Counted from the stretch's first letter, positions 1 through 17,823 are shown. The stretch: DNA of 64,000 nucleotides from Cyanobacteria bacterium P01_F01_bin.150 (GCA_039189765.1 JBCCYL010000003.1:32001-96000), one strand, 5' to 3'. Translations and numbers: made by a program. The notes: generated from the sequence alone by a model not told the origin.

Positions 1-1
1 C

Positions 2-415
2 ATGGTAGACGTGCAGCGAGCGGCCACGGTTGCCGAGGCCCACGACTTTATCGTTCGCTTTCCCAATGGCTACAACACCATTGTTGGAGAACGAGGACAA
101 AAGCTATCCGGGGGCCAGCGGCAGCGATTGGCGATTGCCCGCGCTGTCCTCCGAAATCCCCCCATCCTAATTTTGGACGAAGCCACCTCAGCAGTGGACA
201 ATGAAACAGAGGTGGCGATTCAGCGATCGCTCAACCGCATTACCCAGGACCGAACGACCATTGCGATCGCCCATCGCCTATCGACCATTCGCCATGCAGA
301 CTGCATCTACGTGATGGAATACGGCAAAATTGTGGAACAGGGCACCCATGAGGAGCTGCTGGACCAAAACGGAGTATATGCCGGACTGTGGAATGTTCAA
401 CTGGGAAACGTATAA
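2..415 (+). CDS. ABC transporter ATP-binding/permease protein, C-terminal NBD (5' part outside window)
   Basis: LSGGQRQR signature, [12 protein letters not shown]alker B, IAHRLST H-loop. Confidence 0.93.
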
Positions 416-418
416 AGG

Positions 419-2410
419 ATGAAAATCGAGTATGAAATCCAGCTTCAAGATATCCAAAGCTGGGTAGAATTCTGTACTAATTTGTCTGAGATAAAAGCAA
501 CTATCAAGTTTAGGCCACAGGCCATTTTTTTCCTTAAAGCCTGGCTTGGAATCAATATAGCAACGATTGTATTGAAGATTGTTTTTGCCTCCATATCGTT
601 GATTACTCTTATAGTAGTCTATATCATTTTAGTTCTCTTACTAGCGTTTTTTTACAGTACCCTTTCCATCTCTAAAAATTCTATACTTGACACGATTAAA
701 AATAAAACACGTCAATCAAATCATTATCATTGGTTAGGGCCAAGACAACTTACCTTCTCCAACACAGCCATCTCAGAAAAGATTGATGGCGTATTTTACT
801 GGTATTTTTGGGAGGATATTCAAGACATTATTAGAACCCGCAATCATTTATTCTTAATCGGAGAGAAGATACCTCAGTTTTTTAGCATTATTCCTCTTCG
901 TGAATTGCGTAAGACTTCCCAAGGAGAAAAGATAGTAGATCTGATTATACAAAAATGCCCAAAACCCTATATTTTTTTCCAATCTCCTTCATCCAAGAAA
1001 TCTGCCAACCCTAGTTTAAAGACAAATATTACCTATGCTGATGTTGCGTGGCTCTGGCACACAAACCTTTTAAAATTTTGGATAGAATGTGTCCATCGAT
1101 CAAATGCCAATAACCAACCAGACCTTAGTCTACTGCAAATCAGTAGAGCAACATTTATAGATGCCAGCATTCCTGGTAATTGGGCTGAACGAGCAAGATT
1201 ACTGCATAGTTTAGGGCGATATCCTGAATCCTTAATCTGCTGTCGAAAAGTCTTAGAACTATTTACTCATCAGTATAATATCGCAGGTCAAAAAATATTT
1301 AAAGAAAATAATGAACTGCACGTTGCATTACAAATTGCGATTTCAACTCGTGCAAGTATTCTAGCAACCTTAAATAGACGAGAAGAGGCTATTGACAGAT
1401 TTAACTACTCTCTAGAACTCAGAGAAAAGGTAGAAGAGGGTTCTGAAAAACAAATTGAGCAATCAGTCTCAAAAGTACTCACTTATTTCTGTAAACTGAG
1501 CCTTTTATCTAGCTTAAATAAAGCGAATGCTGCCTTAGATTTATGTGAAACGATAATATCAGAAAGTACTTCAACACCCTATCTACAATCAGCATGGATG
1601 TCGAAAGGTAATTTGCTCTTTATTCTTAAAAAATATGATGAAGCAATTGATAGCTATGTTAAGGTATTAGAAATTGATTCAAAGTTGATTTCAGCACATT
1701 ATGCAATTGCATGTTGCCAGTTATTTATAGAAAATATAGAGTCTTGCGTCAAGAGCTTAAAAAAAATTATTTCTCTAGATCCTGATTATAAAGAGTTCAT
1801 TTTATTAGATCCAGATTTACAGAAGGTTTACCATAGTTTAGATATCCAGGATAGACAGGTATCTGAAGAGACGTCGAAACCGTCAACCTCGTCTGTTACA
1901 CCAGGCTATCAAACGAAAGACCCCTCGCTTCATCAATTAAAATTTCGACGTGCAACGTCCAATGACCACGTTGCTATTGTGAAGCTTCAAACGCAAGTAC
2001 TCAGAAAAGTTTGTTCTGCCCATTATTCTCCAACACAGGTTGCCTCTTTAGTTCGAGGTCAAAAGCAAGGGCGAGTTCAAGATAACAATGAAACTATCTT
2101 TATTGCCCAAGATGATAATGATCGCCCGATCGGATTTGCAACTTTAATGTCCGCACAGCCCTTTATTGGAGGGGTTTATGTTCACCCAGATTGTCTTCGT
2201 CGGGAAATAGGGTCAGTTTTACTGAAAAAAATTGAGCAAACAGCTTTGAAAAAGCGATGTCCAGATCTTTACGTATTGGCAAGTCTAACTGCGTACCCGT
2301 TTTTCCAACGTAACGGATATCGAGAAATGCAAAAGACTGGTTTTTGGTCAGAAGGTCGAATATGGGTTCCCTGCGTCATGATGGAAAAAAGTCTGGTTCC
2401 TCTTAAATAG
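419..2410 (+). CDS. Multidomain protein: N-terminal 2-TM/YcxB-like region, TPR repeats, C-terminal GNAT acetyltransferase
   Basis: Hydrophobic helices at aa ~35-85; TPR motif AWMSKGNLLFILKKYDEAIDSYVKVLEIDS; GNAT motifs VYVHPDCLRREIG and AYPFFQRNGY. Confidence 0.7.
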   Translation: MKIEYEIQLQDIQSWVEFCTNLSEIKATIKFRPQAIFFLKAWLGINIATIVLKIVFASISLITLIVVYIILVLLLAFFYSTLSISKNSILDTIKNKTRQSNHYHWLGPRQLTFSNTAISEKIDGVFYWYFWEDIQDIIRTRNHLFLIGEKIPQFFSIIPLRELRKTSQGEKIVDLIIQKCPKPYIFFQSPSSKKSANPSLKTNITYADVAWLWHTNLLKFWIECVHRSNANNQPDLSLLQISRATFIDASIPGNWAERARLLHSLGRYPESLICCRKVLELFTHQYNIAGQKIFKENNELHVALQIAISTRASILATLNRREEAIDRFNYSLELREKVEEGSEKQIEQSVSKVLTYFCKLSLLSSLNKANAALDLCETIISESTSTPYLQSAWMSKGNLLFILKKYDEAIDSYVKVLEIDSKLISAHYAIACCQLFIENIESCVKSLKKIISLDPDYKEFILLDPDLQKVYHSLDIQDRQVSEETSKPSTSSVTPGYQTKDPSLHQLKFRRATSNDHVAIVKLQTQVLRKVCSAHYSPTQVASLVRGQKQGRVQDNNETIFIAQDDNDRPIGFATLMSAQPFIGGVYVHPDCLRREIGSVLLKKIEQTALKKRCPDLYVLASLTAYPFFQRNGYREMQKTGFWSEGRIWVPCVMMEKSLVPLK

Positions 2411-2487
2411 AGGATTGGAAAGCAGCGATATCGGTTACATTATAATCGGTGAGATAATCAACGTCCGATGGGTGACACGCTGTTTTT

Positions 2488-3141
2488 ATGACACCTTTAG
2501 ATGCACTACTTTTAGTCCTGTATGTCCTGATTGTGTATCAAGTCCTTACAGGAGCGATCGCCAAGCTGGATAAACGGGCTAAGGTCAATCTGAGTGAGGA
2601 TAAACTCAAGGCCGATCTTGAGGCTCGTAATTTGCAGGATATGGTTAAATTTAAGTTTAAGTTTGAGAAAACTTATTCCTTAAGCGATAGCCTCAAGAAG
2701 CTATCCATTACTGTTACGAATAAGTCAAATGATACGCTCTATGTTGACTGGGACCGCAGTTCTTTGACCAACTTTAAGGAGCGATCGCGCCGCGTCATTC
2801 GTCTCACCCCTAATAAACGGCCCGATCTAATCCGCGCCCAAGTCGTAAGTGCCATTTCTCCTATGCGACAGATTGAGGAAGAGATCACCGCTGAAGACGT
2901 ATTTAACCAGGAAGCTGAATCCGCTTCTCTGGATCTCGGCGGGGTTATTGTCCCCGTTGAACGACCCAAGCCGAAGAAGGGGCAACCGGAGCCAAAAGGC
3001 CCCCCCACGTTCTACCTTTACCTTTGGGTGGAAGGAAAATTGACGAATGAGGATGAAGGCAGTTCTCAAGAATTTCGACATCTTATCCCTTTCGAATTTA
3101 TTATCAGTAAGCGACCCTGGACTGACGCGCTGCCGTGGTGA
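2488..3141 (+). CDS. Hypothetical protein with N-terminal membrane anchor
   Basis: 217-aa ORF with hydrophobic N-terminus; no recognised motif. Confidence 0.65.
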   Translation: MTPLDALLLVLYVLIVYQVLTGAIAKLDKRAKVNLSEDKLKADLEARNLQDMVKFKFKFEKTYSLSDSLKKLSITVTNKSNDTLYVDWDRSSLTNFKERSRRVIRLTPNKRPDLIRAQVVSAISPMRQIEEEITAEDVFNQEAESASLDLGGVIVPVERPKPKKGQPEPKGPPTFYLYLWVEGKLTNEDEGSSQEFRHLIPFEFIISKRPWTDALPW

Positions 3142-3292
3142 TCGTCAGTAAAACGCGGTAGTAAAACGAGTTAGGCCATAGGATGTCTGAAGCGATCGCC
3201 AGCACATTGGTGCCGATATAATAAGGCAGCACCAAAATACAGGTTATGTTGACTGACAAAAGTCCTGAAAATCCTGATTTCTTGTTCATACT

Positions 3293-3416
3293 CCTAGCAA
3301 CTGGAAGTTGCGGCTACACAAACAAAGTCCACCGCCGTGGACTAGGTATATTAATGCTTCTGGTAACCCGCGTAGGCGGGTTTTGTTTGTGTAGCCGCAG
3401 TTTCTAACTGCCCAGG
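3293..3416. repeat. REP/MITE-like palindromic element with two internal hairpins
   Basis: TGCGGCTACACAAACAAA (3309-3326) is the exact inverse of TTTGTTTGTGTAGCCGCA (3382-3399); inner hairpins AGTCCAC..GTGGACT and ACCCGC-GTAG-GCGGGT. Confidence 0.8.
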
Positions 3417-3540
3417 TTTAAATTTTTGTCAGGCAACCAGGGCTTCAATTCCAAGCGGATGCAGATCTGAACCAGGATATCGTCACAGGGATGGGGCAAC
3501 GATTCACCACGTTAAGAATTCAGGAAACATGCTGTGCATC

Positions 3541-4077
3541 TTAGAAAACAAGCACTTCAGCACTAGGATAGCCCAGCGAAATTGGTGCAGAGGCCCAATT
3601 ATAGAAATCGGGAGCTAACTTAATCAGCTTTTTGATGATGTCGTCGTTTACCCACAGAACAATGGGGAACGAAAAGTTCTGCTGAAACTCATTGCGAGTC
3701 TGGTTAATGGATATCAGCAGCTCATCCAGATGCGTGACGTTATTTAGACCCAAGATAAAAAGACAGAAAGATGCATCAGCATCACACGCAGATTGACTCT
3801 TTCTAACGAGCGAATAAAGCTGTTGTGTGTTGTTCGGCAGCTCTAGCACTTCAGGGGCAAGATTGTAGCGATCTCGTAAGAGTCTTAAGGCGAGGGATTG
3901 GGGGTAGGCGCGATCGCACCGCACAAACGTCAATGAAAAGCGATGTTTTGACAGGGAAATCGAACGAGCCAAAGTTTTTAAGGCGCGATCGTCCCGCGTA
4001 GTACACAAAGAATTATGGAATTGCGACATAGAACTAGCTTGGTGAGATGCGTCTCCCAATTCGGAGAATATATTCAT
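3541..4077 (-). CDS. Stand-alone copy of the N-terminal domain of the ATPase-partner proteins (degenerate P-loop-like domain)
   Basis: Aligns by eye with aa 1-155 of 5113..8484: LKTLARSISL..FVRC, INQTRNEFQQNFSFPIVLW, APDFYNWA; start uncertain (4077 or 4029). Confidence 0.7.
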   Translation of the reverse strand: MNIFSELGDASHQASSMSQFHNSLCTTRDDRALKTLARSISLSKHRFSLTFVRCDRAYPQSLALRLLRDRYNLAPEVLELPNNTQQLYSLVRKSQSACDADASFCLFILGLNNVTHLDELLISINQTRNEFQQNFSFPIVLWVNDDIIKKLIKLAPDFYNWASAPISLGYPSAEVLVF

Positions 4078-4616
4078 TGTTCCCGTGTGTGTGAATGCAC
4101 TATACCCATCCTTTTCAAGGGGACAGCCCACCAATCAGAATCATTTTCCGACTGACGACCAAAAAGATGGAGCTTATCCAACACACAAACTAGATGCCAC
4201 AAATCTCTGATGGATGATCTGACGAACAGATCAATGAATAAGTGCCAGCATTGTCATGACCTTCCAACTAAAGATGCTGACTTAGCAATTATCACTCTGA
4301 CAACACATCGAAATGCAAAAGAAGCACTTGCACCCATTGCAGACAATACAGACAGAATACAATCTGTGCTTTAGATCACTCAATAAGTGTGATCTAGTAA
4401 AGACTCTCACAAACCTGAGGCTCTTTACTGGATGCCTTTATGATTCGTAACAATACAGAAAAAATGACATAGATAGGGAGGGGGCTTAGATTTTGCCGAG
4501 GTCAACATAATGCATTGAGTTACAGAAATGATGGCTACCAGCGAAAAAATCAAAAACTTAGTTGATGTTCCGGATAAAAAATTCCAGAAGAGAACAACTA
4601 AACGTACACCGTTTAG

Positions 4617-5099
4617 TTGTTCTTTTCACAGCTCCCTATGTTTAATAAAATCAACAGATTAATACAAAAAAGATTTTTTCCTGTTTCATTGTTGCTCATT
4701 TGCATAGCGACAACCCCTGTACTGGCTCAAGACACTAATTCTGCTCACCAAAGCTCCAAAGAAGTGCAAGAATTAGTACAATACAATGCTCTTAAGAACC
4801 AAAACAATACATCACAGGAATGTTTAAGAAAAGATGACCTAAACAAAGATTTTCTTGAGCATATCATTAGTACTGGATACTCTGTACAATCAGATACTGG
4901 ATATATTTTACAAGCATCTACAGAAGAGAACCCAATTAGAGAATATACGATTCTTGATGACTCAACAGGAATAAGGGCCAGAAGATGGAATGAGTCATCG
5001 CATCAATGGGACTGTTGTCCTAAAACAAAAGCTAATTTTCCAATCATTGGAGGTTTATTTCGCGAATATATAAGTTGTGATCCACCTCTACAAAATTAA
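4617..5099 (+). CDS. Hypothetical secreted protein, AT-rich
   Basis: Signal-peptide-like SLLLICIATTPVLAQ; true start may be downstream (MFNK). Confidence 0.55.
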   Translation: MFFSQLPMFNKINRLIQKRFFPVSLLLICIATTPVLAQDTNSAHQSSKEVQELVQYNALKNQNNTSQECLRKDDLNKDFLEHIISTGYSVQSDTGYILQASTEENPIREYTILDDSTGIRARRWNESSHQWDCCPKTKANFPIIGGLFREYISCDPPLQN

Positions 5100-5112
5100 A
5101 GTAGTTGGAATG

Positions 5113-8100
5113 TTATTCCAGCTTATAAGAAACAGTGCAGCTCTCTTGAAAATTAAACTTATTTAATATTTTATCATCAGAATTTATCACCTGACAATAA
5201 GATTTTAACCAATTCTGAGTAAGGTTGTTTAACTCATCTGAGCTTAAGTTTTCTAGTTGATTATCATTCAAATATTCAGGAAAATGGACTTGGTTAAGTG
5301 TTGAGGATTTACTGGAATTTAATGGTTCGTCTTTAAGCATTGATTGAAACGCTTTAACGATTTTTATTTTGATGATATCCTCTTTATAGCCCTCGTCTTG
5401 AATTCCCAATAGCTGTCCTGCTCGGATTATGGAAATCGCAGCTAAATCTTCAGCTTCATGTTTTAAAATCGGATCGGGGTTCAGTTTTTTCTCAGCGTCT
5501 CTTAAGTAAAAGAGGATTATGCTATTTATCTGATCATTCCTTGCTTTCTTGAAAAGTGCAAGGTTGTGTTTATTGACAGAACGTGAGTATATAAATATTC
5601 CTAGGAATACAGCTATTGAAACTAGCGATAGGGTTAAAATTACTATCTTCTGGTGTAGTCTTCTTTCAACCAGTGCTCTCTCAAGCTTTTCTTTCTCTGC
5701 TTGATAGTTCTCTTTCTCAAGCTTTTTTTCTAGCTCTATAATCTTTATTTTCTCTTTAGTGCGAGAATGCAGTTTTCGTTCCCTTTTTAGTTCATCTACG
5801 ATATTTCTGATAAAAGTTCTCTTAGAACGAATAAAAGTCACGAGATAGTCATGAATTAGCTGATATCTGTTGGTTGGAGCTTCGGGAATTAAAAATATTA
5901 AGCCAGCTTTTTGAAAAATGTATAAAATTAATTCAATCTGAACTATCTCTTGTACAAGTTTTTGCTCCAAATTTTCAATTTCAGTTTCGATTTCATGACG
6001 TGTTTTAGGCGGTCGTGTATTATTTTCATCAGTAAGAACATATAAGATTAAATTTGCAGCTCTTTTATTTTCAGAACCGCAATCTTGAATTATACTTTCA
6101 AGATACTTCTGAACTAGAATATTTATCTGTTTTTTACCAACAGTCCTATAGATATTTAAGTTAACTATTCCTTCACTTTGAAGCTGGAAACCAACCACTT
6201 GAAGTTCAATAGGTTTGACTTCTCCATTAACCGTTAAGTTTTGAACGATGCGATCGCGCAACTCCTCTTCCATATAAAACTGAGCGCGTTCAGTGAGCTT
6301 ATCTAGAATAGCCTTAGCATCTTCGGGAGTAAAATTACCTAGGGGATAGCGATGCTCTTGACTAAGGATATTTTTATAGAGTTGAATTTGGCCTTCTGTG
6401 GGAGTAGGGGCATAGCGTTCCCATTCCAGCAAATAGTGGAGATAGTCTTCTCGAAGGGATAAAATCACATTAACGTGAAGAATATTGAGACATTGGCTCA
6501 GAAAACTAAAAAAGGTTTGACGTTCGCTAATTTCCCGGCAGTTAAAGAAGAACTCTTCAAACTGGTCAAAAATAAGAACTGTTACCAGATTAGAGCGAGA
6601 ATTTGCCTGAAGCTGAGTCAAAATAGTATCCGCAGACTGTGGCGTAGATACTGCTTGGTCTGGATTTTGTTGAAGCTGGCTTGCTAATTTTTCTCCTAAC
6701 TTTTCGGCCCACTGACAATTAGTATAGGTTCGGGTCATTACCGATAGAATTTTTCGGGTTTCGATGCGTTTGGATTGCAGCGTTGGGATTAATCCTGCTT
6801 GGAGGATGGAGCTTTTGCCAACGCCCAAAGGACCGTGAAGAATGGTTAGTCGGCATTGTTTATCTACAATTCGTTCCCATAGAGCATCCACATCGCGTTG
6901 GCGTCCGGATACGGCAATTTCTGGGGATACTTCAATGGCTTGTCCATCGGCAGATTCTTTGGGCTGCAGGCGTCCGGCACCAATAAAGGCTTGAAATCCG
7001 TATTGATTTTGGAGCTGGTTTTTCTTGCGCTTACACTCAAACGCTTCACGGTAATTCTTTTGCTGAAAATAGATTTCCCGGAGCTGGTCTAAAATGCCGA
7101 TATATAGTTGGGGGTTCTCGGCTTTGGAACCATAGTCGAGGGTCGTACGCAAATGCTGCTTGGCGGCATCGGTATTGCCAAGATGGTAATCCGCTTGGGC
7201 CAGCAGTGATAGAAAGAGACTGCAATCTAGACAAGGCTGGGGCAGACGGTCGACGATCGCCAACGCCTCCTCTACATGAGTTTTAGCCTGTTGATACGCT
7301 TGCTGCTGCAAAGCCAACTCTGCCTTAAAACTGTAATCCCTTGCCCTTTCTAGGGCATAGATATCGCGTCCTTGTGTATCCGACTGATGCAAATCCAGCG
7401 CTTCTCGAACAAGGATGTCCAAATCATCCCACTGCTGTAGACGTTTGAGGGTTTCACTCAAATAACCAATAAAGCGGGCCTTGAGGTCCAAGCGATCGCC
7501 CCCCTCAAACCCAGCCAGAGCCTCCCGAAAATAGTCTGCTGCATCCTGCCAGTGATCCTCTTGGTGAGCGCGATCGCCCTCCGCTTTACGCCAATAGCAA
7601 AGGCCCAGGTGTATGCCAAGAAATCCTGCACGGATAGGTTGCGGTTGGGTTTGCCAAATGTCCAGGCTTTTTTGGTAGTGTGCGATCGCCTGATCAAGGG
7701 TGCGTTGTGTCTCACGATCGTACCCCCAAGAGGTCCGCGCTATTTTACGAAAATAGTCCCGTCCCCAAAGCAAATCTAAGTTCGCCTTTAATTCAGGTTG
7801 CAAGTCATAGGCATGGGTGTCCAAATCCTGCTGGAGGGACTTTAATTCCCAAGACTGTAGGGGAAAAAGGGCAGCATCACCCACGGAAGTACCATCAGCA
7901 TCGACAATATGAGACTGGAGACCCTGGGGAAATAGGGGCCGATGGGATTGCAGTAGCGTTGCCCATAGCCGCTCTGTCTGGTCAGTTAGCCCATGCAAAA
8001 GATCCTCTCTCGACGGCACAAAAGAGCTGGGGCTAGCGGCCCAGTTATAGAAATCTGGGGCGCGTCTAATCATCAGCGGTAAGACATCATCCGTCATCCA

Positions 8101-8484
8101 CAGCAGCATCAGAAAGGGAAACCGTTGATGAAACGCATCACGAACTTGATTGGTCGCAGAGAACAATCCCTCTAGATCTGCTACCTGCTCAAATCCATGA
8201 ATACTGAGGACTCGTAACTCTGCCCGTTCTGCGGTGCTAAAAGTAGTTTCGATGGCATCTACCAAGGTTAAGGTGTCTGCTTTTAGTGTCAGCGATTGAA
8301 TCGGCAACGAACAGGTTTGTCGCAGATGGGTCATTACCCGCTGACGAAGGTCGTTATAGTTGCAACGTACAAGCTTTAGGGCAAATTCTTGCTCATTTAA
8401 TAGGCTAACCGAACGGATCAAGCTACGGAGCGATCGCTCGTTTTCACCAGAGAACTCTAGGGGGGAAGGGCGATCGCTTATCAT
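5113..8484 (-). CDS. Degenerate N-terminal domain + TPR + nSTAND1-type NTPase + coiled coil + TM helix; no WD40 array
   Basis: Walker A GPLGVGKSS, Walker B VLIFDQFEEFF, ILSLREDYL and YQLIHDYL motifs; TPR helices; TM IVILTLSLVSIAVFLGIFIY; ATGA overlap with upstream ATPase. Confidence 0.8.
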   Translation of the reverse strand: MISDRPSPLEFSGENERSLRSLIRSVSLLNEQEFALKLVRCNYNDLRQRVMTHLRQTCSLPIQSLTLKADTLTLVDAIETTFSTAERAELRVLSIHGFEQVADLEGLFSATNQVRDAFHQRFPFLMLLWMTDDVLPLMIRRAPDFYNWAASPSSFVPSREDLLHGLTDQTERLWATLLQSHRPLFPQGLQSHIVDADGTSVGDAALFPLQSWELKSLQQDLDTHAYDLQPELKANLDLLWGRDYFRKIARTSWGYDRETQRTLDQAIAHYQKSLDIWQTQPQPIRAGFLGIHLGLCYWRKAEGDRAHQEDHWQDAADYFREALAGFEGGDRLDLKARFIGYLSETLKRLQQWDDLDILVREALDLHQSDTQGRDIYALERARDYSFKAELALQQQAYQQAKTHVEEALAIVDRLPQPCLDCSLFLSLLAQADYHLGNTDAAKQHLRTTLDYGSKAENPQLYIGILDQLREIYFQQKNYREAFECKRKKNQLQNQYGFQAFIGAGRLQPKESADGQAIEVSPEIAVSGRQRDVDALWERIVDKQCRLTILHGPLGVGKSSILQAGLIPTLQSKRIETRKILSVMTRTYTNCQWAEKLGEKLASQLQQNPDQAVSTPQSADTILTQLQANSRSNLVTVLIFDQFEEFFFNCREISERQTFFSFLSQCLNILHVNVILSLREDYLHYLLEWERYAPTPTEGQIQLYKNILSQEHRYPLGNFTPEDAKAILDKLTERAQFYMEEELRDRIVQNLTVNGEVKPIELQVVGFQLQSEGIVNLNIYRTVGKKQINILVQKYLESIIQDCGSENKRAANLILYVLTDENNTRPPKTRHEIETEIENLEQKLVQEIVQIELILYIFQKAGLIFLIPEAPTNRYQLIHDYLVTFIRSKRTFIRNIVDELKRERKLHSRTKEKIKIIELEKKLEKENYQAEKEKLERALVERRLHQKIVILTLSLVSIAVFLGIFIYSRSVNKHNLALFKKARNDQINSIILFYLRDAEKKLNPDPILKHEAEDLAAISIIRAGQLLGIQDEGYKEDIIKIKIVKAFQSMLKDEPLNSSKSSTLNQVHFPEYLNDNQLENLSSDELNNLTQNWLKSYCQVINSDDKILNKFNFQESCTVSYKLE

Positions 8485-9899
8485 AATTGCCCCCGAAATT
8501 GCTGCCCCCGAAACTGTTTTGTTTCCTGGAGGGCTGGATTAACTTCGAACCATCGTCCCTCTTGAGGATCGTCATACTCAAATACAAAGAGACTCCGCAA
8601 CAGCATTTGATGGGCTTTTTCCCCGCTGACCCGCTTTTGTTGGGCTACCTGCTGAATTAACTCCCACTCATGGTCTTCCACCGCAAGACTAAGGCTGTCG
8701 CGATATTCTCGAATGGCCCGCTCTAAGCAGTCACGGGTAATGGGTGGGTCATCTTCCTCCAAACAGCGATGCAAAATGCTTAACAGATTACGGCTATGAC
8801 CTCCGGCAATGCGACACAGTCGCTCCAGGGTATCCGGTGAGTCAAACACCTGATCGACAAAATCTAACCGCTGTTCTGGGGGGGCGTCTGGAAACGCCCG
8901 TGCCATTACCATCTGTTTCAGGAGCTGGATACCCTCGCCGTAATCGCTACCATCCATTTTATAAATGGGGACCATGGGCAGGCGCTTTACGTCGTTTCCC
9001 CCGCCCAGACGATTTTTTAAGTACTCTGCATCATTGGAAAAGGCCAAAACAAGGGGAATGGTGTAAATCACATGGCAATCAAGCTGGCGGAGCTGATCGC
9101 CTCGGTCTACAAATAAATACTCTGGCAAGGTGCGCTTGCTGCCGTCTTTCTGGCGATTATCTACTCGGTCTAAATTATCGACAATCACTACCAGCCCTTC
9201 TTTTCCCTGATCCCGTAGCTGTTTCTGGGCAGGTTCCAATAGCTCTTTGTTAATCACCTCTAAAATAGTCTTGACCCGAGGTTCAAGATGCTGGGAAAGG
9301 AGCGATCGCACATTTTCACTATTTCTAGCAGTACTCGTTAATTCACCGAGGCCAAAGGCAATGGAATAGCTATCATTATCTCGCTTGATTCCGAACTCTT
9401 TTTTTAGCTTTATCCCCGTTCCGGCAACTTCAACGTCTGGAGCCTGAAAAGTAAGCCCCGTAACTTCAGAGGTTAGTAAGGCCTTGGCTTCATTGATAAT
9501 TTTGAGAAAGCGAGTGGGCTGGAGCTGAATCTTAAACGGCTCTAGACTCAGAGCGATTTGACGGGCGATCGCCAACAAAATATCGCTGATATCCACGTTC
9601 GCCATATCCAAATCTTCAGTGGAGGCAAAATAAACCACATGGAAGCCTTGGTCTTCCAGTTCCGCCTGGAGTCGCCGTAGTTCGGTGGATTTGCCACAGC
9701 CAATATGTCCCGTAAAGAGTTGGCAGGTGGGTTCACCCAGCTGCGATCGGTTGAGGATAGTGCGCTCTAGGCGCTTAATAATTTTGCCGCCTCTCACGGA
9801 GGCAAAGTCTATATAATACTTCCGGTCTTCAGGCTTACTGATTTGCAACGTGCGACTAGGATCACACGCATGAAAAAATTTGATGGGGTCGAGTTGCAT
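8481..9899 (-). CDS. P-loop ATPase (cyanobacterial AAA/STAND-related ATP-binding protein)
   Basis: Walker A GHIGCGKST, Walker B VVIVDNLD, GGHSRNL; ATG at 9899. Confidence 0.85.
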   Translation of the reverse strand: MQLDPIKFFHACDPSRTLQISKPEDRKYYIDFASVRGGKIIKRLERTILNRSQLGEPTCQLFTGHIGCGKSTELRRLQAELEDQGFHVVYFASTEDLDMANVDISDILLAIARQIALSLEPFKIQLQPTRFLKIINEAKALLTSEVTGLTFQAPDVEVAGTGIKLKKEFGIKRDNDSYSIAFGLGELTSTARNSENVRSLLSQHLEPRVKTILEVINKELLEPAQKQLRDQGKEGLVVIVDNLDRVDNRQKDGSKRTLPEYLFVDRGDQLRQLDCHVIYTIPLVLAFSNDAEYLKNRLGGGNDVKRLPMVPIYKMDGSDYGEGIQLLKQMVMARAFPDAPPEQRLDFVDQVFDSPDTLERLCRIAGGHSRNLLSILHRCLEEDDPPITRDCLERAIREYRDSLSLAVEDHEWELIQQVAQQKRVSGEKAHQMLLRSLFVFEYDDPQEGRWFEVNPALQETKQFRGQQFRGQL

Positions 9900-10419
9900 G
9901 GTAGATGCCGGGGCAGAAGTGACAATCAAAGGAACTATTTAAAATAGTTATACCCCTACCACCAAGGAAAAATCTACTGATTCCCCTGAAAAACTACACT
10001 TTCGTTACAGTAAAATGCCCAACAAAGACTTTCTATTTCATCGCGAGATGCTAGAAAATAGAAATTTGAGGGTACGGTAGCAACAATGCGATGATAGCCC
10101 CGACACTACAATAGCGGATGTACAGAGGTGGCACTTCGGCGATCGCTAGAATAGTTGCAGCTCAATGAATCCTTTCAGTTTAAAATTGGCGAAACAACCA
10201 AAGTTTGACAGGTGGCACACTGCTCTTATGACACCCTTAGGCCCATCGAGCGATATTCTTCATCGTGACTCGACCACTCATCGCAAGATGGTGCTAATGA
10301 CGACAATGAGGCACTTAATCGTTGTCTCATCAAGCGTAAACATCAGGCATTGGAGCAGTGATAAGATATCATAACTGGGATTTTGGTTGGTGCTGCGTTT
10401 TGCTTTACATTCAGTTTCT

Positions 10420-11710: not shown

Positions 11711-12865
11711 TTATTCATCGATCGCTATTCTTTGGAAAGCCTGATTCACATAGGTTTGGTTAATCCGTTCTTGCTCTAATCTTAGCCCCTGATCAACCAG
11801 ATCAACGTAGAGCGATCGCTCCTCTTCCGTCAGATGAGGCAGATTTTCTGGAGGCGCTGGGGAAACGGATACGGCAAATTCTTGGAAGGCATCGAAGGTC
11901 TGGCGGTCCATCATGATTGAAACGGTACGGGGAAAGTGCGATCGCATTTGCGACAGAATTTTGAAGCCATCGCCATCCAAATCTCCCCAATACAGCAGCT
12001 CACAGTCAGCTAGCCACTGGGCATATTTGAGATTTTGTACGGCGTAGCCACTGCCAAAGAGGGCGATCGCGTTCTCTATCTGGGGCAATGTCAGAAAAGT
12101 CATAAGATTTTCGGTCACGATGCAGCGCTGGGGTGGCAGGTTGAGGCAATTGAAATCAGATAGAGGCAGACTGATATCCTGCAATTGCAGCGGGGAGGGA
12201 TAGAGAAATCTAAGGCGAATTAGAGGTTCTCGATACTTGAGCAAAAACCGTTTTTCAAAGATATAATCCCGCTCATTTTCAATAGTGATCAGCTTTTCAT
12301 CTGGCAGAATCGCTTCTAAAAGGCTACGAAGGATGGCCTTATTTTGCTCAATAAATTTGGTGTCGACCGCAATGGAGAGTTCGCGAATATATCGATTAGG
12401 ATTTTTATAGTGATGATCCCGAAAATATTGGCAGACTTTGAGTAGATTGGGCCAGCGATCGCCATTTTCTACTACTTTTTTGGGATGGGCTAAAAGCCAG
12501 GATTCCAGTTCAGGAATGATTAACCTAATTTGGTGAATATCCGCTTTGAACTGCTTGACTTCTGTCTCCTTTTTGATAAGTTTTATATAGTCCGCTTCAT
12601 TATCAATACTCACCCGCTGAGGCAAAGACTGTACTCCATATTTTTGCGTCCGTCGGCTTTCCAAGTGCAGATCGTATCCATAGCCAATCGTTTGTTTAGA
12701 ATTTTTGATAAGCTGATTGACCGCTTTCTGAAGCGTTGGATAATCTTTGGGGCGGGCACCGATAGGAAACTCCAACGGGAAAAAAGAATCTCCTGTAACC
12801 ACCGAACAAAGAAAATTAGTGTACCGATACTGGGCTTTCTTTTGGATTTGGGCAGGGTCAATCAT
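11711..12865 (-). CDS. jetD: Wadjet nuclease JetD (DUF3322 + DUF2220 Toprim)
   Basis: YIRELSIAVDTKFIE, ENLMTF, GSGY, YWGDLDGDGFKIL, RLEQERI; likely start MIDP at 12865. Confidence 0.9.
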   Translation of the reverse strand: MIDPAQIQKKAQYRYTNFLCSVVTGDSFFPLEFPIGARPKDYPTLQKAVNQLIKNSKQTIGYGYDLHLESRRTQKYGVQSLPQRVSIDNEADYIKLIKKETEVKQFKADIHQIRLIIPELESWLLAHPKKVVENGDRWPNLLKVCQYFRDHHYKNPNRYIRELSIAVDTKFIEQNKAILRSLLEAILPDEKLITIENERDYIFEKRFLLKYREPLIRLRFLYPSPLQLQDISLPLSDFNCLNLPPQRCIVTENLMTFLTLPQIENAIALFGSGYAVQNLKYAQWLADCELLYWGDLDGDGFKILSQMRSHFPRTVSIMMDRQTFDAFQEFAVSVSPAPPENLPHLTEEERSLYVDLVDQGLRLEQERINQTYVNQAFQRIAIDE

Positions 12866-12967
12866 TTTCTTAAGCAGTGCCGTTATTTGCGTAGTAGCGC
12901 GACAGGCTCCTGGTTGCCCTGACATTGTAAGATTTAAAGAGTACGCGCAACTCGGGATAGTGAGCCA

Positions 12968-13633
12968 ATGGTCAATGTCGTATCTCGCGTAAAGAATTCT
13001 CAGCCCGATAATGAGTTTTCTCCCCAAGCGTTTGTAGTGTTGCAGAATATCAGTTGGCCCACGTATCAGGCGCTTTTAGCCGATATGGGCGAGCATCGGG
13101 CTGCCCGACTGACCTACTGTTGTGGCACTCTGGAAATTAAGATGCCATCCAAATTACATGAGCTGATCAATCGTCTGTTGGAACGAATTATCGCTACGTT
13201 GACGGAAGAATTGGGATTGGACATTGTGCCGTTGGGGTCCACTCGTTTTGATGCCGAAGAGAGTGAACAGGGTGTAGAACCAGATTCCTGTTTTTATATT
13301 CAACATGCCAATTGTGTAGAGCCAGACGATATTGCGCCTCCCCAAGATATTCCTCCGGATCTGGTGGTTGAGGTAGACATCACCAGTTCATCAAAGTCTC
13401 GTCTATTGGTATACCAAATGATGGGAGTCCCAGAAGTGTGGCGCTACAATCGTCAGGAGATAAAGATTCTTCTGCTCACTCAAGGGGAATATGTGGAGTG
13501 TTCCAGTAGCCCGACATTTCCCATGCTCTCAGCGAAGACCTTATGGCGGTTTTTAGAGCTTGGCAAACAATCCAAGAACCACAATCAGATCATTGCTGAA
13601 CTCCGGGCATGGATTAGAAAACAGGCTGGTTGA
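12968..13633 (+). CDS. Uma2 family endonuclease-like protein
   Basis: ISWPTYQAL, EPDSCFYIQ, PPDLVVEVDITS, GVPEVWRY. Confidence 0.92.
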   Translation: MVNVVSRVKNSQPDNEFSPQAFVVLQNISWPTYQALLADMGEHRAARLTYCCGTLEIKMPSKLHELINRLLERIIATLTEELGLDIVPLGSTRFDAEESEQGVEPDSCFYIQHANCVEPDDIAPPQDIPPDLVVEVDITSSSKSRLLVYQMMGVPEVWRYNRQEIKILLLTQGEYVECSSSPTFPMLSAKTLWRFLELGKQSKNHNQIIAELRAWIRKQAG

Positions 13634-13662
13634 CTGACAACAGTAGGCGTATGGGGTGGTCC

Positions 13663-13727
13663 AGATCCCAGGGTTCTGCAAAAGAATCTAGCGAGAAGCC
13701 AAAGCGTTAGACAGAACCCTGGGATCT
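13663..13727. repeat. 16-bp perfect inverted repeat between convergent Uma2 and jetC (short dispersed repeat or terminator)
   Basis: AGATCCCAGGGTTCTG (13663-13678) / CAGAACCCTGGGATCT (13712-13727). Confidence 0.7.
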
Positions 13728-13742
13728 CAGCGTTTAGGGTTC

Positions 13743-16700
13743 TTACTCTGAGCGATCGCCATTTAGAGCCTCCTGCCGTTTATATCGGTAGTCTTCAATG
13801 GTAATCGAGGCAATTTTCGAGCAATCGCCTTCAGGAGTATTAGAAACAAAGTGAAGGCTGGCAATATAGGGCTCAATCACATTAATTTTATCTTTGGGAG
13901 TCACGACTAATAGCTGGAGATTCAGGTTCTTAAATAATTCCATGGCATAGCGGGCATTGCTATCATCAGACTTGCTAAAGGCTTCGTCAATGACCACAAA
14001 ACGGAAGGATTTATGCTTGATGCTTTCCTGGTTTAGTCCAAACTGATAGGCGATCGCCGAGGCCAAAATCGTGTAGGCCAGCTTTACCTTTTGCCCCCCG
14101 GATTTTCCAGAAGAGTCCGTATGGTGTTCCTTTTCCGTATGGTCCGCTCGATAGCGTTCACTAACGGAAAAATCCAGCCACTTGCGCACATCGGTCACCA
14201 ATGCCGTCCATCGGTCTTCGGCCTTAAAACGTTCAATCAGTCGAGTTTGAATATTATTAAATCGCTCTTCATTATCTTCAAAATCCTGTTTAGCCACATC
14301 CCCCAAACAGAGTTTCAAATCATCCTTAAAGTCGCGAATTTCGCGATTGCGAGTGGTGTCACAACAGAGGTTAATATAAGTAGAGTCGGTGTAGTCAATC
14401 TTTTGCAGCGATTCGTTGAGTTCTTCAATGGCTTGTTGGATTTCTTCTTCCTGCTTTTCCAAAGCACTTTTGAACATAGAAATGGCAATAATCACCTTTT
14501 CGTTCATTAACTGCTTAAATCGCTTTTCGTGGCGGGGTAAATCATCCTTTTGAATCTGATTTTTACGATTAACGTATTCCTCCACGTAGTCCAAGGTCGT
14601 GCCCAATTCCGATGCCATTTCAGGAAAAGAATTTTTGAACCGTTCCATTTGAATTTGCAATGAGCTTTCCGATTTTTCTTGCTTGCGCTCATGCTGTCGA
14701 ACCTTGTCCCGCAAAAAGTCATGCAAGTTCCGCTCTTCTTTAGCAATGGTAGCAAGGGTCATCTCATATTTCTTCAGCTTGGTGGCCATGGCTTTTTCAA
14801 ATGCCTCTAGGTCACTGGCCGCAGATCCGTCTGCGATCGCCTCACATTTGCTCTGCTCCTCCTGGGCAGAGGCCTGACGATCTTCTAGGGTTTGAATCTG
14901 ACGGATCAGCGTTTCTCTCTGTTGCTCTGCCTCAGCAATTTCAGTCCGGGCATCTTGGAGCTGCTGCTCCAGTTGCTTGAGCCGATCGGAGCTAGCCTCT
15001 AGCTCTTGGCGCTGGTTTTCTAAATCGATTCGTTTGAAGTCCAGCGAACGCCAATCGATGTCGGAGAAGTCCTCATAGTTCATAAAATCCTGGAGCCAAG
15101 AGCGCTGCTGCTGGCGTTTACCTCGCTCCTCTTCAATAAACTGAATCCGCTGCTCAATCTGCTTCAACTGTTTTTTAATTTTGCGGAGTTCTGACTCCAG
15201 CGCTTTAATTTTGTTGACATTGCTCCAGCCCAGAATGTAACGACTGCGATCGCCAATTTTAGACCGATCGTCCTTCTCGTGACGTTCGCCTCCGTGCTTA
15301 ATCAATCCGCTAGTAGTGATGGCCCGCGCTTCCCGCTGGAACTGCTCAATAGAGTCACAACACACGTAGTTAAACTGGCGCACCAGTTGGCCCCGGAGCC
15401 ACTGATAAAAGGTGAGATTGTCCTGTTTGATTTCCAGTTTGTAGGGCACATGGTCCGGCGGCACATCTCGCTGGGTAGCTTTGCCGCCAGGACCATCATC
15501 TGTAATCCGGTAATACACCAAGCGGCCCTTCAAATGGGTGCGATGAACATAGGCATTTACCGCTGCATAATCATCATCGGACACCAGCACACATAGGCCA
15601 AAGCCCCGCAACAATCGCTCGATTGCCCCTTCCCATTCCTGGGCTTCAGGCCGCACCTGCAATAGTTCTCCCACAAAGGGCAGTTCAGTTTCATCTAACT
15701 TGAGATCTTTGACCAAGCGATCGCGAATATCCAAATTACTCTTGGGGATCTGGCTTTTGCGACTGCGGAGAGACTTGAGCTCTTCTTCCAGTTCTGTACA
15801 CTGTTTGACCAGTTCCGCCTGTTCGACCTTGAGTTCGTCCCGCTGACCTTCCAGGATGTTTAGCCCCGTCTCAATCTCAGCCTTGAGGTCCTCTCCCTCG
15901 GTGCGATTAGTGTAAAAAGTGTCACGATCGGTATACTCCCCAAACTCTAGCTTTGCTGCCAGTTGATTGTAGGCAGTGGCCTGTTTTTGACTGCGATCGA
16001 CCGCCTCTTTGGCCTGGGCAATTTCTCGTGCCAGCTCCTGCAAGCGCTGGCCGATGCTGTCTTGCTTAATCGCAAATTCCAGGTCTTTTTCCCGCTGGCG
16101 TAGATCAGAAAGGTGGCGATCGCGCTCGGTCCGTTGGTCCTGATACTGGGTCAGTTCTTGATTAATCGCCTGTAGGTCTTGGACCAGCAAGGTCAACTTC
16201 TTACAAGCAAAAAAGGCCGGTAGAATTCCCTGTAACGCCTGGGTTTTAGCCGCATCATCCTTGAGCCGCTTATATTTTTTGGCTTCATCGGTCAGGGGTT
16301 TGAGGGCCTCTAACTGCTGACGGGCATTGAGGATGGCGGTGTGGGAAACGGTAAGGTTTTCGTAGCTTTCTTGCAGCTCCCGAATCTTTGTGCGCATGTC
16401 CACTTTTTCCAACATGTGATTGCGCACAAAATCGTTCAGTCCCCCGATTTCTTTGATGCTGACGGTTTGGTTAAACAGGTCCAACGCCTTTTCGGACTGG
16501 AGACCCAACCGTTTGCGAAACTGCTGACTGTAGCGGGTAAAGTCATCAAACAAGAATGCGCCATTCACCTTGAGCTGCTTCTTTAAATCCGCGACTCGAC
16601 TGAACTGGGAAAAATCCTGACGGATGGTTAACTGCTCATCCGCCAGCACAAAAAATTTCCGCACCGAGCCATCCTGCATCCACAGGACTTGAGCCAGGGT

Positions 16701-17255
16701 CACGTTCTGGGCGCTGACATGATCCTGGAAATAGGCGAGCAGCACCGACAACGTGGCTTTTTCTCGCAATAGCTTGGGCTTAGACCCGTAGGACTCTTCC
16801 GATCGCGTCCGTCCATAGGCCCCCTGGACATAGCTCTTTTCATTCCGCTCTTTCTTACCGGTCCCTGTGGACGCTTGATTATAGTTGCGGCCCCGATTTG
16901 GAACAAGCAGCGTCAACATTCCATCTACCAGGGTTGACTTTCCAGACCCATTGGCCCCGGTCAGTAATCCAATTCCGCCGTTTAAATCAAGCGCCCAAGG
17001 AGTTTGATCAAACGTGCCCCAATTCAGTATTTCCAATCGCTGTAGGCGAAATCCAGCCAAGGCATTTTCACCGTAATGGCCATTGCTATTTTGGCTCACC
17101 GTATTTTGGCTCGCTGTACCTTGGCTCCCCGTATCTTGGCTTACTTCTCCTTGGCCCCCAGTACTCTTGCCATTGCCATTCTCTGAACCATTTTTTGAAC
17201 TATTCTTTGCCGTACGCTCGTTATCTAGGGTATCCAGAACATCAGCCTTTGTCAT
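13743..17255 (-). CDS. jetC: Wadjet SMC-like ATPase JetC
   Basis: LEILNWGTF, Walker A GANGSGKST, long coiled coils, PFVGELL hinge region, KSGGQK signature, VVIDEAF Walker B; overlaps jetB. Confidence 0.93.
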   Translation of the reverse strand: MTKADVLDTLDNERTAKNSSKNGSENGNGKSTGGQGEVSQDTGSQGTASQNTVSQNSNGHYGENALAGFRLQRLEILNWGTFDQTPWALDLNGGIGLLTGANGSGKSTLVDGMLTLLVPNRGRNYNQASTGTGKKERNEKSYVQGAYGRTRSEESYGSKPKLLREKATLSVLLAYFQDHVSAQNVTLAQVLWMQDGSVRKFFVLADEQLTIRQDFSQFSRVADLKKQLKVNGAFLFDDFTRYSQQFRKRLGLQSEKALDLFNQTVSIKEIGGLNDFVRNHMLEKVDMRTKIRELQESYENLTVSHTAILNARQQLEALKPLTDEAKKYKRLKDDAAKTQALQGILPAFFACKKLTLLVQDLQAINQELTQYQDQRTERDRHLSDLRQREKDLEFAIKQDSIGQRLQELAREIAQAKEAVDRSQKQATAYNQLAAKLEFGEYTDRDTFYTNRTEGEDLKAEIETGLNILEGQRDELKVEQAELVKQCTELEEELKSLRSRKSQIPKSNLDIRDRLVKDLKLDETELPFVGELLQVRPEAQEWEGAIERLLRGFGLCVLVSDDDYAAVNAYVHRTHLKGRLVYYRITDDGPGGKATQRDVPPDHVPYKLEIKQDNLTFYQWLRGQLVRQFNYVCCDSIEQFQREARAITTSGLIKHGGERHEKDDRSKIGDRSRYILGWSNVNKIKALESELRKIKKQLKQIEQRIQFIEEERGKRQQQRSWLQDFMNYEDFSDIDWRSLDFKRIDLENQRQELEASSDRLKQLEQQLQDARTEIAEAEQQRETLIRQIQTLEDRQASAQEEQSKCEAIADGSAASDLEAFEKAMATKLKKYEMTLATIAKEERNLHDFLRDKVRQHERKQEKSESSLQIQMERFKNSFPEMASELGTTLDYVEEYVNRKNQIQKDDLPRHEKRFKQLMNEKVIIAISMFKSALEKQEEEIQQAIEELNESLQKIDYTDSTYINLCCDTTRNREIRDFKDDLKLCLGDVAKQDFEDNEERFNNIQTRLIERFKAEDRWTALVTDVRKWLDFSVSERYRADHTEKEHHTDSSGKSGGQKVKLAYTILASAIAYQFGLNQESIKHKSFRFVVIDEAFSKSDDSNARYAMELFKNLNLQLLVVTPKDKINVIEPYIASLHFVSNTPEGDCSKIASITIEDYRYKRQEALNGDRSE

Positions 17256-17823
17256 TGCTATACTCCTCCAGCTTTTGCTTTAAGCGTTCCAACATATCCG
17301 CGTCAATTTTGGCTTTGATGATGGGGCGGACTTCGTAGTTGGCTTCCCGCCCTGATAGTCGTCGCAAAAAGCCCAAGTCTGTCACTTGCCGCACCAAGCT
17401 ATCCACATCGCGCCGAAATTTCTCTTCGTTATTGGTGTCAGGCAAATAGGGCTGGAGGAGATCCCTCAGGGTTTCAATATTCAGCACCAGTCGCCCAGTG
17501 GCATCGCTGGAGTCAAACTGTCGCAATTGGTCCCGCAACAGCACACACAAAAGCGTCACTTTGAAGCTGAGCGATCGCCGTGCCGTCAGCCGAGGTAAGA
17601 CTTCACTGGCGGGAGCATCCTCATCTGGGTCCGGCTGGTCTACGTAAGCAAAACCGTCGGTGTCGAAGTTCTGGACCCGCATGCCAATTTTGCTGAAGTA
17701 TTCCTCAATCGGAGTCAAGTAACTTTGCAGCCGATCCCAATGGGGGTCATCGCTGTACATCACGCCTTTCAACAGCTTAATAATGACCGGAGCATAGGGT
17801 TGGGGTGGCTGGGATTCGATCAT
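17242..17823 (-). CDS. jetB: Wadjet JetB (DUF4194)
   Basis: IIKLLKGVMY, DGFAYV, TLLCVLLR, LGFLRRL, YEVRPIIKA; coupled to jetC. Confidence 0.88.
   Translation of the reverse strand: MIESQPPQPYAPVIIKLLKGVMYSDDPHWDRLQSYLTPIEEYFSKIGMRVQNFDTDGFAYVDQPDPDEDAPASEVLPRLTARRSLSFKVTLLCVLLRDQLRQFDSSDATGRLVLNIETLRDLLQPYLPDTNNEEKFRRDVDSLVRQVTDLGFLRRLSGREANYEVRPIIKAKIDADMLERLKQKLEEYSNDKG

Follow-up and report, generated by a model that had tools for sequence, protein, structure and literature searches.

A cyanobacterial ATPase/STAND cassette with a predicted pseudo-AAA+ adaptor domain and a conserved stand-alone copy of it

Genes and domains of the cassette

We analyzed a 64,000-nucleotide stretch of DNA (the window) from Cyanobacteria bacterium P01_F01_bin.150 (GCA_039189765.1, JBCCYL010000003.1:32001-96000). 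Positions 3541 to 9899 hold genes for a P-loop ATPase (P0001), a 1,123-residue STAND protein (P0002), a small exported protein (P0004), and a protein (P0003) that consists of a stand-alone copy of the N-terminal domain of P0002, here termed the N-domain. In the following, G numbers denote genomes (G000 being the window's own), C numbers denote contigs, and L numbers denote loci. P0001, P0002, and P0003 are all encoded on the minus strand, in open frames at 8481-9929 (ATG at 9899), 5113-8484, and 3541-4134 (ATG at 4077), and the ATGA at 8484-8481 holds both the stop codon of P0001 and the start codon of P0002. The features named in the original prediction, i.e., a P-loop ATPase, the ATGA overlap, the domain order of the 1,123-residue protein, and a free copy of the N-domain, are all present in the sequence.

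Pfam, Foldseek, and a reading of its motifs identify P0001 as a soluble 472-residue P-loop ATPase (8481-9899, minus strand). The ATG at 9899 agrees with the alignment of paralogues; an alternative TTG lies upstream at 9929. The protein possesses a single Walker A motif (GHIGCGKS at residue 64), a Walker B motif (VVIVDNLDR), and a sensor-2-like motif (SGGHSRNL), and no hydrophobic or transmembrane (TM)-like segment was found in it (maximum KD19, 1.23). Pfam matches were obtained to KAP_NTPase (a marginal 24.9 bits; cutoff, 20) and NPHP3_N (28.1 bits; cutoff, 24.8), AAA_16 and ATPase_2 scored narrowly under their cutoffs, and the Pfam ORC/Cdc6 model did not match. In the structure model (pLDDT 76.9), a P-loop core with a long helical insert is joined by a lid that bears SGGH(V/S)RNL and by a winged-helix-like C-terminal part. 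Cdc6/Orc1 (2qby_A) and ORC subunits were the top Foldseek matches (E 1e-5), with global TM scores of only 0.28 to 0.34; an archaeal ATPase_2 protein, Apaf-1, NRC2, and BrxC ranked lower. A PDB sequence search with the ATPase profile returned matches at the P-loop level only, the closest solved KAP entry having an E value of 0.016. With the KAP NTPases (PF07693), P0001 shares a score above the Pfam cutoff, an hhhhDxLDR-type Walker B motif, and a long insert that separates this motif from Walker A, and NCBI labels a plasmid homologue of P0001 "KAP family NTPase"; however, its score is marginal and it lacks the transmembrane inserts. KAP NTPases are said to carry transmembrane helices inserted in the P-loop domain.

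P0002 (5113-8484, minus strand, as are all of its parts) begins with the N-domain (residues 1 to 165; 7990-8484), which was delimited by a structure model and structural matches. A TPR/helical-repeat region (residues ~166 to 526; 6907-7989) lies between the N-domain and the NTPase. Pfam TPR models (TPR_12, TPR_2, and TPR_MalT) match it at residues 383 to 495, N-terminal of the NTPase, and our own "midTPR" profile is also matched in relatives. The nSTAND1 NTPase domain (PF20703; residues 527 to 909; 5758-6906) scores 113.1 bits against a cutoff of 27.1 and holds the only Walker A motif of the protein (GPLGVGKS at residue 551) as well as a Walker B-like LIFDQFEE. A charged, K/E-rich, heptad-like stretch (residues ~895 to 945), read from the sequence as a coiled coil, precedes a predicted TM helix (residues ~947 to 967), which is the one strong hydrophobic segment of the protein (KD19 of 2.89 at residue 947); together, stretch and helix occupy 5584-5802. 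The final 156 residues form a tail (5113-5583) that stands where relatives have WD40 propellers. Pfam found no family in the last 175 residues (E 0.01) and no WD40 repeat in P0002, PADLOC and NCBIfam likewise recognized nothing in the tail, and the C-terminal repeats typical of STAND/NLR-like receptors were not encountered. By comparison, all six close paralogous partners in the window's genome carry WD40 propellers, P0002 being the only one without. Near its end, the tail displays an L..L...(G/Y/S)C motif common to its orthologues.

The G+C content of the P0002 gene drops from ~0.50 to 0.33 (GC3 from 0.49 to 0.27), beginning within the nSTAND1 domain. The low-G+C part comprises the 3' half of the gene (5113-6700) and the P0004 gene (0.34; GC3, 0.25). 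A recent chimera was considered as the cause and rejected, as the G001 and G229 orthologues show the same drop; because they share it despite saturated synonymous sites, the drop is old and maintained. Two database proteins depart from the common architecture in other ways. P0005 (1,193 residues) has two tandem N-domains and continues through TPR, nSTAND1, and a coiled coil to a TM helix at the C terminus, without WD40. In P0198 (2,045 residues), the first ~205 residues of the ATPase are fused in frame to a STAND-WD40 protein just past the N-domain point, which looks as if one deletion had removed the second half of the ATPase together with the N-domain.

P0003 (3541-4077, minus strand) is 178 residues long from the ATG at 4077, or 197 residues from an alternative TTG at 4134, and forms its own transcription unit; its leader of ~40 residues is poorly conserved. 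P0004 (4638-5099, plus strand) lies between the P0002 and P0003 genes, convergent with the former and divergent from the latter, and combines an N-terminal signal/anchor segment with a Cys-containing C terminus.

The N-domain, its predicted docking, and the conserved four-gene block

The original prediction described the first domain of P0002 as a region of ~155 residues that lacks a Walker A motif and is encoded a second time alone, ending just past APDFYNW. Indeed, no Walker A motif occurs in P0002 residues 1 to 170, and across the family the motif was found in 0/85 N-domains and 89/89 ATPases. BLASTP aligned P0003 to P0002 residues 15 to 163 with 35% identity over 150 residues (E 8e-24); both contain APDFYNW, and P0003 stops 17 residues after it. 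Neither Pfam (E 0.01) nor NCBIfam recognized a family in the N-domain (P0002 residues 1 to 170) or in P0003. The N-domain was modeled as a five-stranded alpha/beta domain (pLDDT 87.4; pTM 0.81), and the top structural matches listed are all AAA+ cores. These include TnsC (Z 11.9, rmsd 4.6, 163 residues aligned), Cdc6/Orc1 (Z 10.6), RFC, ORC, and NLR NTPase domains (best Foldseek E, 8e-4). The structure search thus agrees with the proposal of a degenerate domain and supports a predicted degenerate P-loop/AAA+ fold, i.e., a pseudo-AAA+ core. We rejected the possibility that the N-domain is a diverged recent copy of its partner ATPase, because an hhalign profile comparison gave a probability of 0.3%.

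Invariant or near-invariant residues of the N-domain (P0002 numbering) are L22, R24, F34, L36, N112, R115, P143, D144, and W148. A profile built from 11 N-domains retrieved 3,088 clusters (50% identity) at an E value of ≤0.001, 601 of them at ≤1e-30, and in nearly all of the best 150 clusters the match lies at the N terminus.

The N-domain had also been proposed as the docking module for the ATPase, and a complex prediction supports this. P0001 was modeled with the fused N-domain of P0002 from our own alignments (12 ATPase rows and 11 N-domain rows), giving ipSAE values of 0.84, 0.82, and 0.81 over three runs, while the best of three controls reached 0.00. Of the solved complexes, 116 of 157 reach the scoring mark, as do 2 of 215 mismatched pairs, counts that apply only roughly to our own alignments. 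Both partners had pLDDT values of 82 or more, and the runs agreed in at least 96% of their contacts. On the N-domain, the predicted interface involves N112, R115, P143, D144, and W148, the last three of which belong to the APDFxxW motif, as well as R140. On the ATPase, it involves P14 of the "ACNP" motif, P-loop residues 66 and 67 (G67), residues 242 to 247 (including N242 and R245), R370, and the lid helices at 374 to 406. The signature motifs of both families would therefore meet in this interface, and the N-domain is predicted to dock its co-encoded ATPase over the nucleotide pocket, the lid, and the ACNP motif. Among 40 sequences of less than 70% identity, the N-domain interface is more conserved than the rest of the domain (mean entropy of 1.55 versus 2.06; Mann-Whitney P value, 0.007).

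P0003 is a real, conserved gene under purifying selection and not a remnant. Thirteen other database proteins of 109 to 199 residues match it at 43 to 78% identity. Twelve of these were aligned with the window and G229 copies, P0217 (a 109-residue fragment) and P0205 (the database record of the window's copy) being left out. The 14 aligned sequences all end 0 to 48 residues past APDFYNWA (13 of them within 25). Compared with its same-genus G001 orthologue (169 codons, 57% identity), P0003 shows a dN of 0.34 to 0.36 and a saturated dS of 1.5 to 2.4. The resulting omega is ~0.15 to 0.23 (0.09 to 0.16 over the domain), and the dN of P0002 in the same comparison is similar (0.38 to 0.41). Thus, the ratio is far from the value near 1 that would have marked an unconserved frame, and orthologues of the same extent exist. 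Residues at the predicted interface are retained preferentially: P0003 is identical to P0002 at 19/37 interface positions versus 29/112 elsewhere, and to its G001 orthologue at 29/37 versus 59/112. It keeps L22, R24, F34, L36, N112, R115, D132, P143, D144, and W148. At position 140, the P0003 clade has K, compared with R in 80% of the family. A tblastn search of window positions 1 to 5300, for which P0001, P0002, and six paralogous STAND proteins and ATPases served as queries, retrieved no TPR, nSTAND1, or ATPase remnant around P0003, only the N-domain itself.

In a quick IQ-TREE phylogeny of 85 N-domains with SH-aLRT support, P0003 and its G001 orthologue group in a clade of their own, which is fully supported and long-stemmed. 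A second clade (support, 96) unites the stand-alone copies of L027 and L046 and is placed beside the L027 full-length gene, and the L059 copy nests among full-length Nostoc genes and may be a recent truncation. Judging from these placements, stand-alone N-domains arose more than once. The gene order is ATPase, bare N-domain, full-length STAND in L027 and ATPase, full-length STAND, ATPase, bare N-domain in L046. The ESM Atlas contains cyanobacterial clusters (57 to 124 members) of hypothetical proteins of 151 to 173 residues that resemble the N-domain, as leads rather than alignments, and also N-domain-plus-TPR proteins, with no Pfam family on the aligned part.

The P0003 type occurs at six places: the window, G001 (split between C703 and C905, the join being inferred), G229:C42 (the same contig as L122, counted once), and the metagenome loci L123, L124, and L125. 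At all six, a WD40-less STAND gene of the P0002 kind, or its end, lies 0.9 to 1.1 kb upstream on the same strand. In these STAND proteins, a coiled coil and a TM helix are followed by ~150 to 170 tail residues with the shared L..L...(G/Y/S)C end motif. The ATPase gene precedes the STAND gene in 3/3 loci that reach far enough (window, G229, and L124), and C703 of G001 carries an ATPase fragment plus the STAND gene. Across the block loci, identity to the window's proteins is 58 to 74% for the ATPase, 39 to 50% for the STAND protein, and 41 to 58% for the small N-domain protein. In 6/6 loci the gap is filled by an opposite-strand open reading frame (ORF) of 109 to 153 residues with a signal/anchor segment and a Cys-containing C-terminal part. 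P0004-type sequences are alike only within subgroups: P0004 is 30% identical to its G001 homologue and shows no sequence similarity at E <1 to the small opposite-strand ORFs of L122 to L125, with which it shares position, orientation, and signal-peptide/Cys character only. Taken together, the ATPase, the STAND protein, the exported protein, and the stand-alone N-domain constitute a conserved four-gene block, a rare subtype of the cassette.

Cassette family and genomic context

The module is not unique to this locus. Cyanobacteria possess a large family of such cassettes, of which the block represents one subtype. Within the window's own 10.6-Mb assembly, tblastn located the ATPase at 12 places and the N-domain at 9 (self included), corresponding to ~10 cassettes. 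The N-domain lies directly behind a close ATPase paralogue on C29, C108, C52, C140, and C188, whereas the two genes are separated by a Uma2 gene on C7. The 6/6 close paralogous partners combine N-domain, TPR, nSTAND1, and a WD40 array in 1,138 to 2,023 residues. There are also two distant pairs, one on C335 and one in the window itself (39536-42098, plus strand), and in both the partner consists of N-domain plus TPR only. In the window's distant pair, the ATPase (39536-40984) is 29% identical to P0001 and is followed by an N-domain-plus-TPR protein (40944-42098), the third N-domain copy of the window. More distant ATPase paralogues (23 to 27% identity) in L009 (G000:C211) and L010 (G000:C2) precede giant NACHT-plus-TPR proteins of at least 1,590 and of 2,408 residues, in which neither the genome tblastn nor Pfam saw an N-domain; because of these two loci, the ATPase family appears to pair with other STAND clades as well.

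Among relatives, the N-domain was found in 21/31 genomes, with 1 to 8 matches each. A scan of one genome per species gave at least 593 pattern matches; among the matches listed, 579 were confirmed relatives, and the best 80 loci were profiled. All 80 belong to cyanobacteria or to unlabeled metagenome-assembled genomes, one being labeled Sericytochromatia. With our own profiles, an N-domain gene was found within 2 kb downstream, on the same strand, for 75/81 ATPase genes of these loci (median distance, 100 nucleotides). The downstream gene encodes N-domain, TPR, and nSTAND1 in 66 cases. It is cut by the contig end in 2 cases, frame-shifted in 3 (L028, L074, and L079), and a stand-alone N-domain ORF in 4 (L027, L046, L059, and L084). 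Of the other six ATPase genes, two have no room left on the contig and four have no such gene despite room (L053, L067, L086, and L094), the N-domain gene of L086 lying 3.6 kb away. The neighborhood survey across cyanobacteria that accompanied the original prediction as a proposed check thus upholds the ATPase/N-domain pairing.

A type I Wadjet JetBCD set lies on the minus strand at 11711-17823, 1.8 kb from the cassette, with JetD at 11711-13027, JetC at 13743-17255, and JetB at 17242-17823; a Uma2-family gene (12968-13633, plus strand) is located between JetD and JetC. No JetA-sized ORF was found directly upstream of JetB, and the next minus-strand ORF (18353-19042) matches PADLOC PDC-S17. 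On the other side, a MITE-like inverted repeat (...ctgcggctacacaaacaaa... / ...tttgtttgtgtagccgca...) occupies ~3290-3410, ~130 bp downstream of the P0003 stop. Farther on, a plus-strand gene (419-2410) encodes a 663-residue protein in which TPR repeats are combined with a GNAT acetyltransferase domain at the C terminus, and it is followed by a 217-residue ORF (2488-3141) with a faint match to DrmE_N (E 0.024).

Elsewhere in the genome, on C49 (L007, G000:C49:44001-54291, genes 2307-9283), a P0001-family ATPase forms the C-terminal half of a 1,004-residue protein. A SAV_2336 N-terminal domain (443 bits; cutoff, 200) makes up the first half, and the N-domain model gave no match on this fusion, the one of its kind scanned. 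The gene follows genes for a VMAP-C protein and a MoxR-like AAA protein and is faced by an EACC1-type caspase gene on the opposite strand. This gene order resembles that of the VMAP ternary systems of Kaur et al. (2020), whose vWA component, in the portions of that article available to us, carries variable C-terminal effector modules, including STAND NTPases; the SAV_2336 domain would be the vWA component of the VMAP system. Among 51 longer ATPase homologues, of which 12 sequences were read, the fusion partners comprise the SAV_2336 domain, an ATPase_2-type NTPase plus TPR, further AAA domains, a sigma-70 region 4 insert, and, distantly, HipA; no TIR Pfam family was listed among the 51. The ATPase also matches on eight cyanobacterial plasmids, four of them predicted to be conjugative. 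One such region, from an Acaryochloris plasmid, was read; there, genes for HicAB, two tyrosine recombinases, and a NACHT protein surround the pair, which is annotated as "KAP family NTPase" (ATPase) and "hypothetical protein" (partner). These contexts favor a conflict system.

Proposed mechanism, rival readings, and known systems

We tentatively prefer, with slightly less than even confidence, to read the cassette as a subtype of a cyanobacterial two-NTPase cassette in which a membrane STAND switch carries a docked ATPase and P0003 sets the threshold as a buffer or decoy. P0002 would be a membrane-anchored, NLR-like STAND switch whose pseudo-AAA+ N-domain serves as an adaptor, docking the separately encoded KAP/Orc1-Cdc6-like ATPase P0001. 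A signal would reach the part beyond the TM helix, which is the 156-residue tail here and the WD40 propellers in most relatives. It would lead to nSTAND1 oligomerization and, through it, to a changed state of the bound ATPase as an output or licensing step. P0003, an adaptor-only protein that appears to keep the ATPase-binding surface, would most likely bind the same ATPase and set the threshold for this response. We infer the direction of signaling, the threshold role of P0003, and the role in immunity. As a guess from the sequence, K140 in the P0003 clade would be consistent with a cap able to bind but not to activate, if R140 is a trans-acting finger. An improbable elaboration of this reading has the tail, on the outside, reading the adjacent exported Cys protein (or a loss or change of it), the cap, on the cytoplasmic side, holding the ATPase inactive until oligomerization, and P0003 titrating the ATPase. 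P0003 would then be a bacterial counterpart, with an unrelated fold, of the CARD-only/pyrin-only inflammasome decoys.

Several points weigh against the preferred reading. No effector domain could be recognized in the cassette by Pfam or PADLOC. PADLOC-DB 2.0 gave weak, P-loop-level matches only for P0001 (mad8, 1.8e-5; PDC-S20, 4.4e-5) and none for P0002, P0003, or P0004, and the contexts that point to conflict are few. The complex model covers the fused N-domain of P0002, not P0003, and its score was obtained from shallow alignments of our own (11 and 12 rows). The contacts resemble those between AAA+ proteins in solved assemblies, and part of the score may be memory of these. On the ATPase, interface positions show no higher conservation than other positions (entropy of 1.40 versus 1.18; P value, 0.15), and profile comparison shows no sequence relation between N-domain and ATPase. 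The TM topology of P0002 comes from a hydropathy scan, in which the corresponding segment exceeds the threshold in 29/62 relatives. Finally, the P0003 type is rare: a short open frame was present in 3/401 sampled genomes of the class (G000, G001, and G229), 15/401 genomes matched P0003 at E ≤1e-28, and 12 of these 15 matches are N termini of frames of 1,667 to 1,831 residues. Therefore, the cassette works without a P0003 type nearly everywhere.

Of the rival readings, that of a non-immune membrane signal-transduction or cell-biology system of filamentous cyanobacteria is unlikely, though to be taken seriously. It would account for the lack of a toxic effector domain and for a positionally conserved exported protein beside a receptor whose tail is predicted to face outward. 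However, copy number is variable (1 to 8 matches in 21 of 31 genomes; ~10 cassettes here), the ATPase occurs on eight plasmids, with the pair among recombinases and toxin-antitoxin genes in the region read, a Wadjet system lies next door, and the ATPase module is shared with a VMAP-type locus. A shade less probable is that P0003 acts as a positive subunit, either completing a mixed ATPase/pseudo-ATPase assembly or activating free ATPase through a trans residue, as LAP1 and LULL1 activate Torsin by supplying one. An ATPase gene followed by a stand-alone N-domain gene in L027, L046, and L084 makes a unit of these two possible, the L046 ATPase being the best match to P0001 (61% identity), and R115 (near-invariant) and R140 (R in 80%) both lie in the predicted interface. 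Position 140 is K in the P0003 clade, however, and P0003 is encoded in its own transcription unit, away from the ATPase.

It is quite unlikely that the ATPase serves the giant STAND protein as a chaperone or assembly factor, as MoxR serves vWA partners, with the N-domain as its handle. Translational coupling through the ATGA, the strict adjacency of the two genes, and the absence of a recognizable effector in the cassette are what such a factor would predict. Yet the ATPase module is also fused C-terminally behind a SAV_2336 domain and behind an ATPase_2-type NTPase plus TPR, where it looks more like a portable module for output or signaling, and its winged-helix-like C terminus is as in Orc1/Cdc6. 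Least probable by far is that P0003 is the decaying remnant of a broken cassette. It does correspond to only the first domain of a much longer architecture, an inverted repeat lies just downstream (~3290-3410), L059 looks recently truncated, and L028 and L074 are split by frame breaks. Nevertheless, no coding trace of TPR, nSTAND1, or ATPase surrounds it, orthologues in at least five other records keep its length and stop position at 41 to 78% identity and saturated dS, and it belongs to a fully supported, long-stemmed clade of the quick tree.

Several known systems offer parallels. LAP1 and LULL1 each place an inactive AAA+-like domain of a membrane protein on the Torsin AAA+ ATPase, which this domain completes and activates. 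Entry 5j1s, among the structural matches of the N-domain, is presumably tied to this system. The predicted arrangement is alike in that a nucleotide-free AAA+-like domain of a membrane protein sits on the pocket of a separate ATPase with a conserved Arg; it differs in that there is no sequence relation, the ATPase is KAP/Orc1-like, and activation here would be by analogy. The best structural matches of both partners come from clamp loaders and ORC, with their inactive subunits (delta-prime; Orc2/3/5), and from the Cdc6/Orc1 heterodimer. These likewise mix active and degenerate AAA+ cores; however, they are replication machines, whereas here the degenerate core lies on a STAND receptor and has no Pfam match. 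Mammalian CARD-only and pyrin-only proteins are adaptor-only decoys encoded beside their parent genes. They resemble P0003 in being adaptors encoded alone by a receptor system, through duplication more than once, but this is an analogy of logic only, fold and partners being unrelated.

Closer in biology are the nSTAND1-clade STAND conflict systems of multicellular bacteria described by Kaur, Iyer, Burroughs, and Aravind (eLife 2021; PMC8195603). P0002 scores above the profile cutoff, the family is concentrated in cyanobacteria, and its close relatives combine TPR with beta-propellers. According to the portions of that article available to us, an EAD or effector stands at the N terminus in those systems, whereas P0002 has a pseudo-AAA+ core and no propeller. 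The same portions contain, in Nostoc operon strings of the source data, an unnamed "AAA_22" followed by "TPR+nSTAND1+BetaPropeller," and we found in them no name for the N-domain and no discussion of an upstream ATPase. EAD coupling, as presented in the accessible parts of Kaur et al. (2020, 2021), also involves an N-terminal adaptor on a STAND NTPase with extra copies nearby. There, coupling is homotypic and the copies sit on effectors, whereas here it is predicted to be heterotypic and the copies are bare or TPR-only; Pfam EAD models did not match the N-domain. The iSTAND ternary systems (Kaur et al. 2020, in the parts available) combine an inactive STAND with a MoxR/vWA gene pair. No MoxR or vWA gene was found beside the cassette, and what the MoxR-type locus on C49 shares with the cassette is the ATPase module rather than the N-domain. 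Full-text literature searches (nSTAND1, EACC1, STAND/WD40, and SAV_2336) retrieved no experimental study of the ATPase/N-domain pair, in line with the earlier statement that none was known. A 2026 preprint on bacterial pattern-recognition STANDs covers WD40 sensors and, in the portion available to us, does not mention this pair.

Thus, the basic ATPase/STAND pair is already in published neighborhood tables, unnamed. New are the WD40-less subtype with its conserved stand-alone adaptor and positionally conserved exported protein, the controlled docking prediction, and the ATPase fusion in a VMAP-type locus.

To our knowledge, the bacterial NLR-like proteins studied so far either include their effector in the same polypeptide or recruit it through homotypic adaptors. 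In this cassette, an inactive ATPase fold would be the adaptor, predicted to bind an active ATPase and, in one subtype, made as a free conserved protein as well; it belongs to a large family (the 3,088 clusters above) that lacks a Pfam model. If both docking and titration prove true, the cassette would represent a new wiring principle for STAND switches and would offer a simple, testable example of how an adaptor-only protein sets a threshold.

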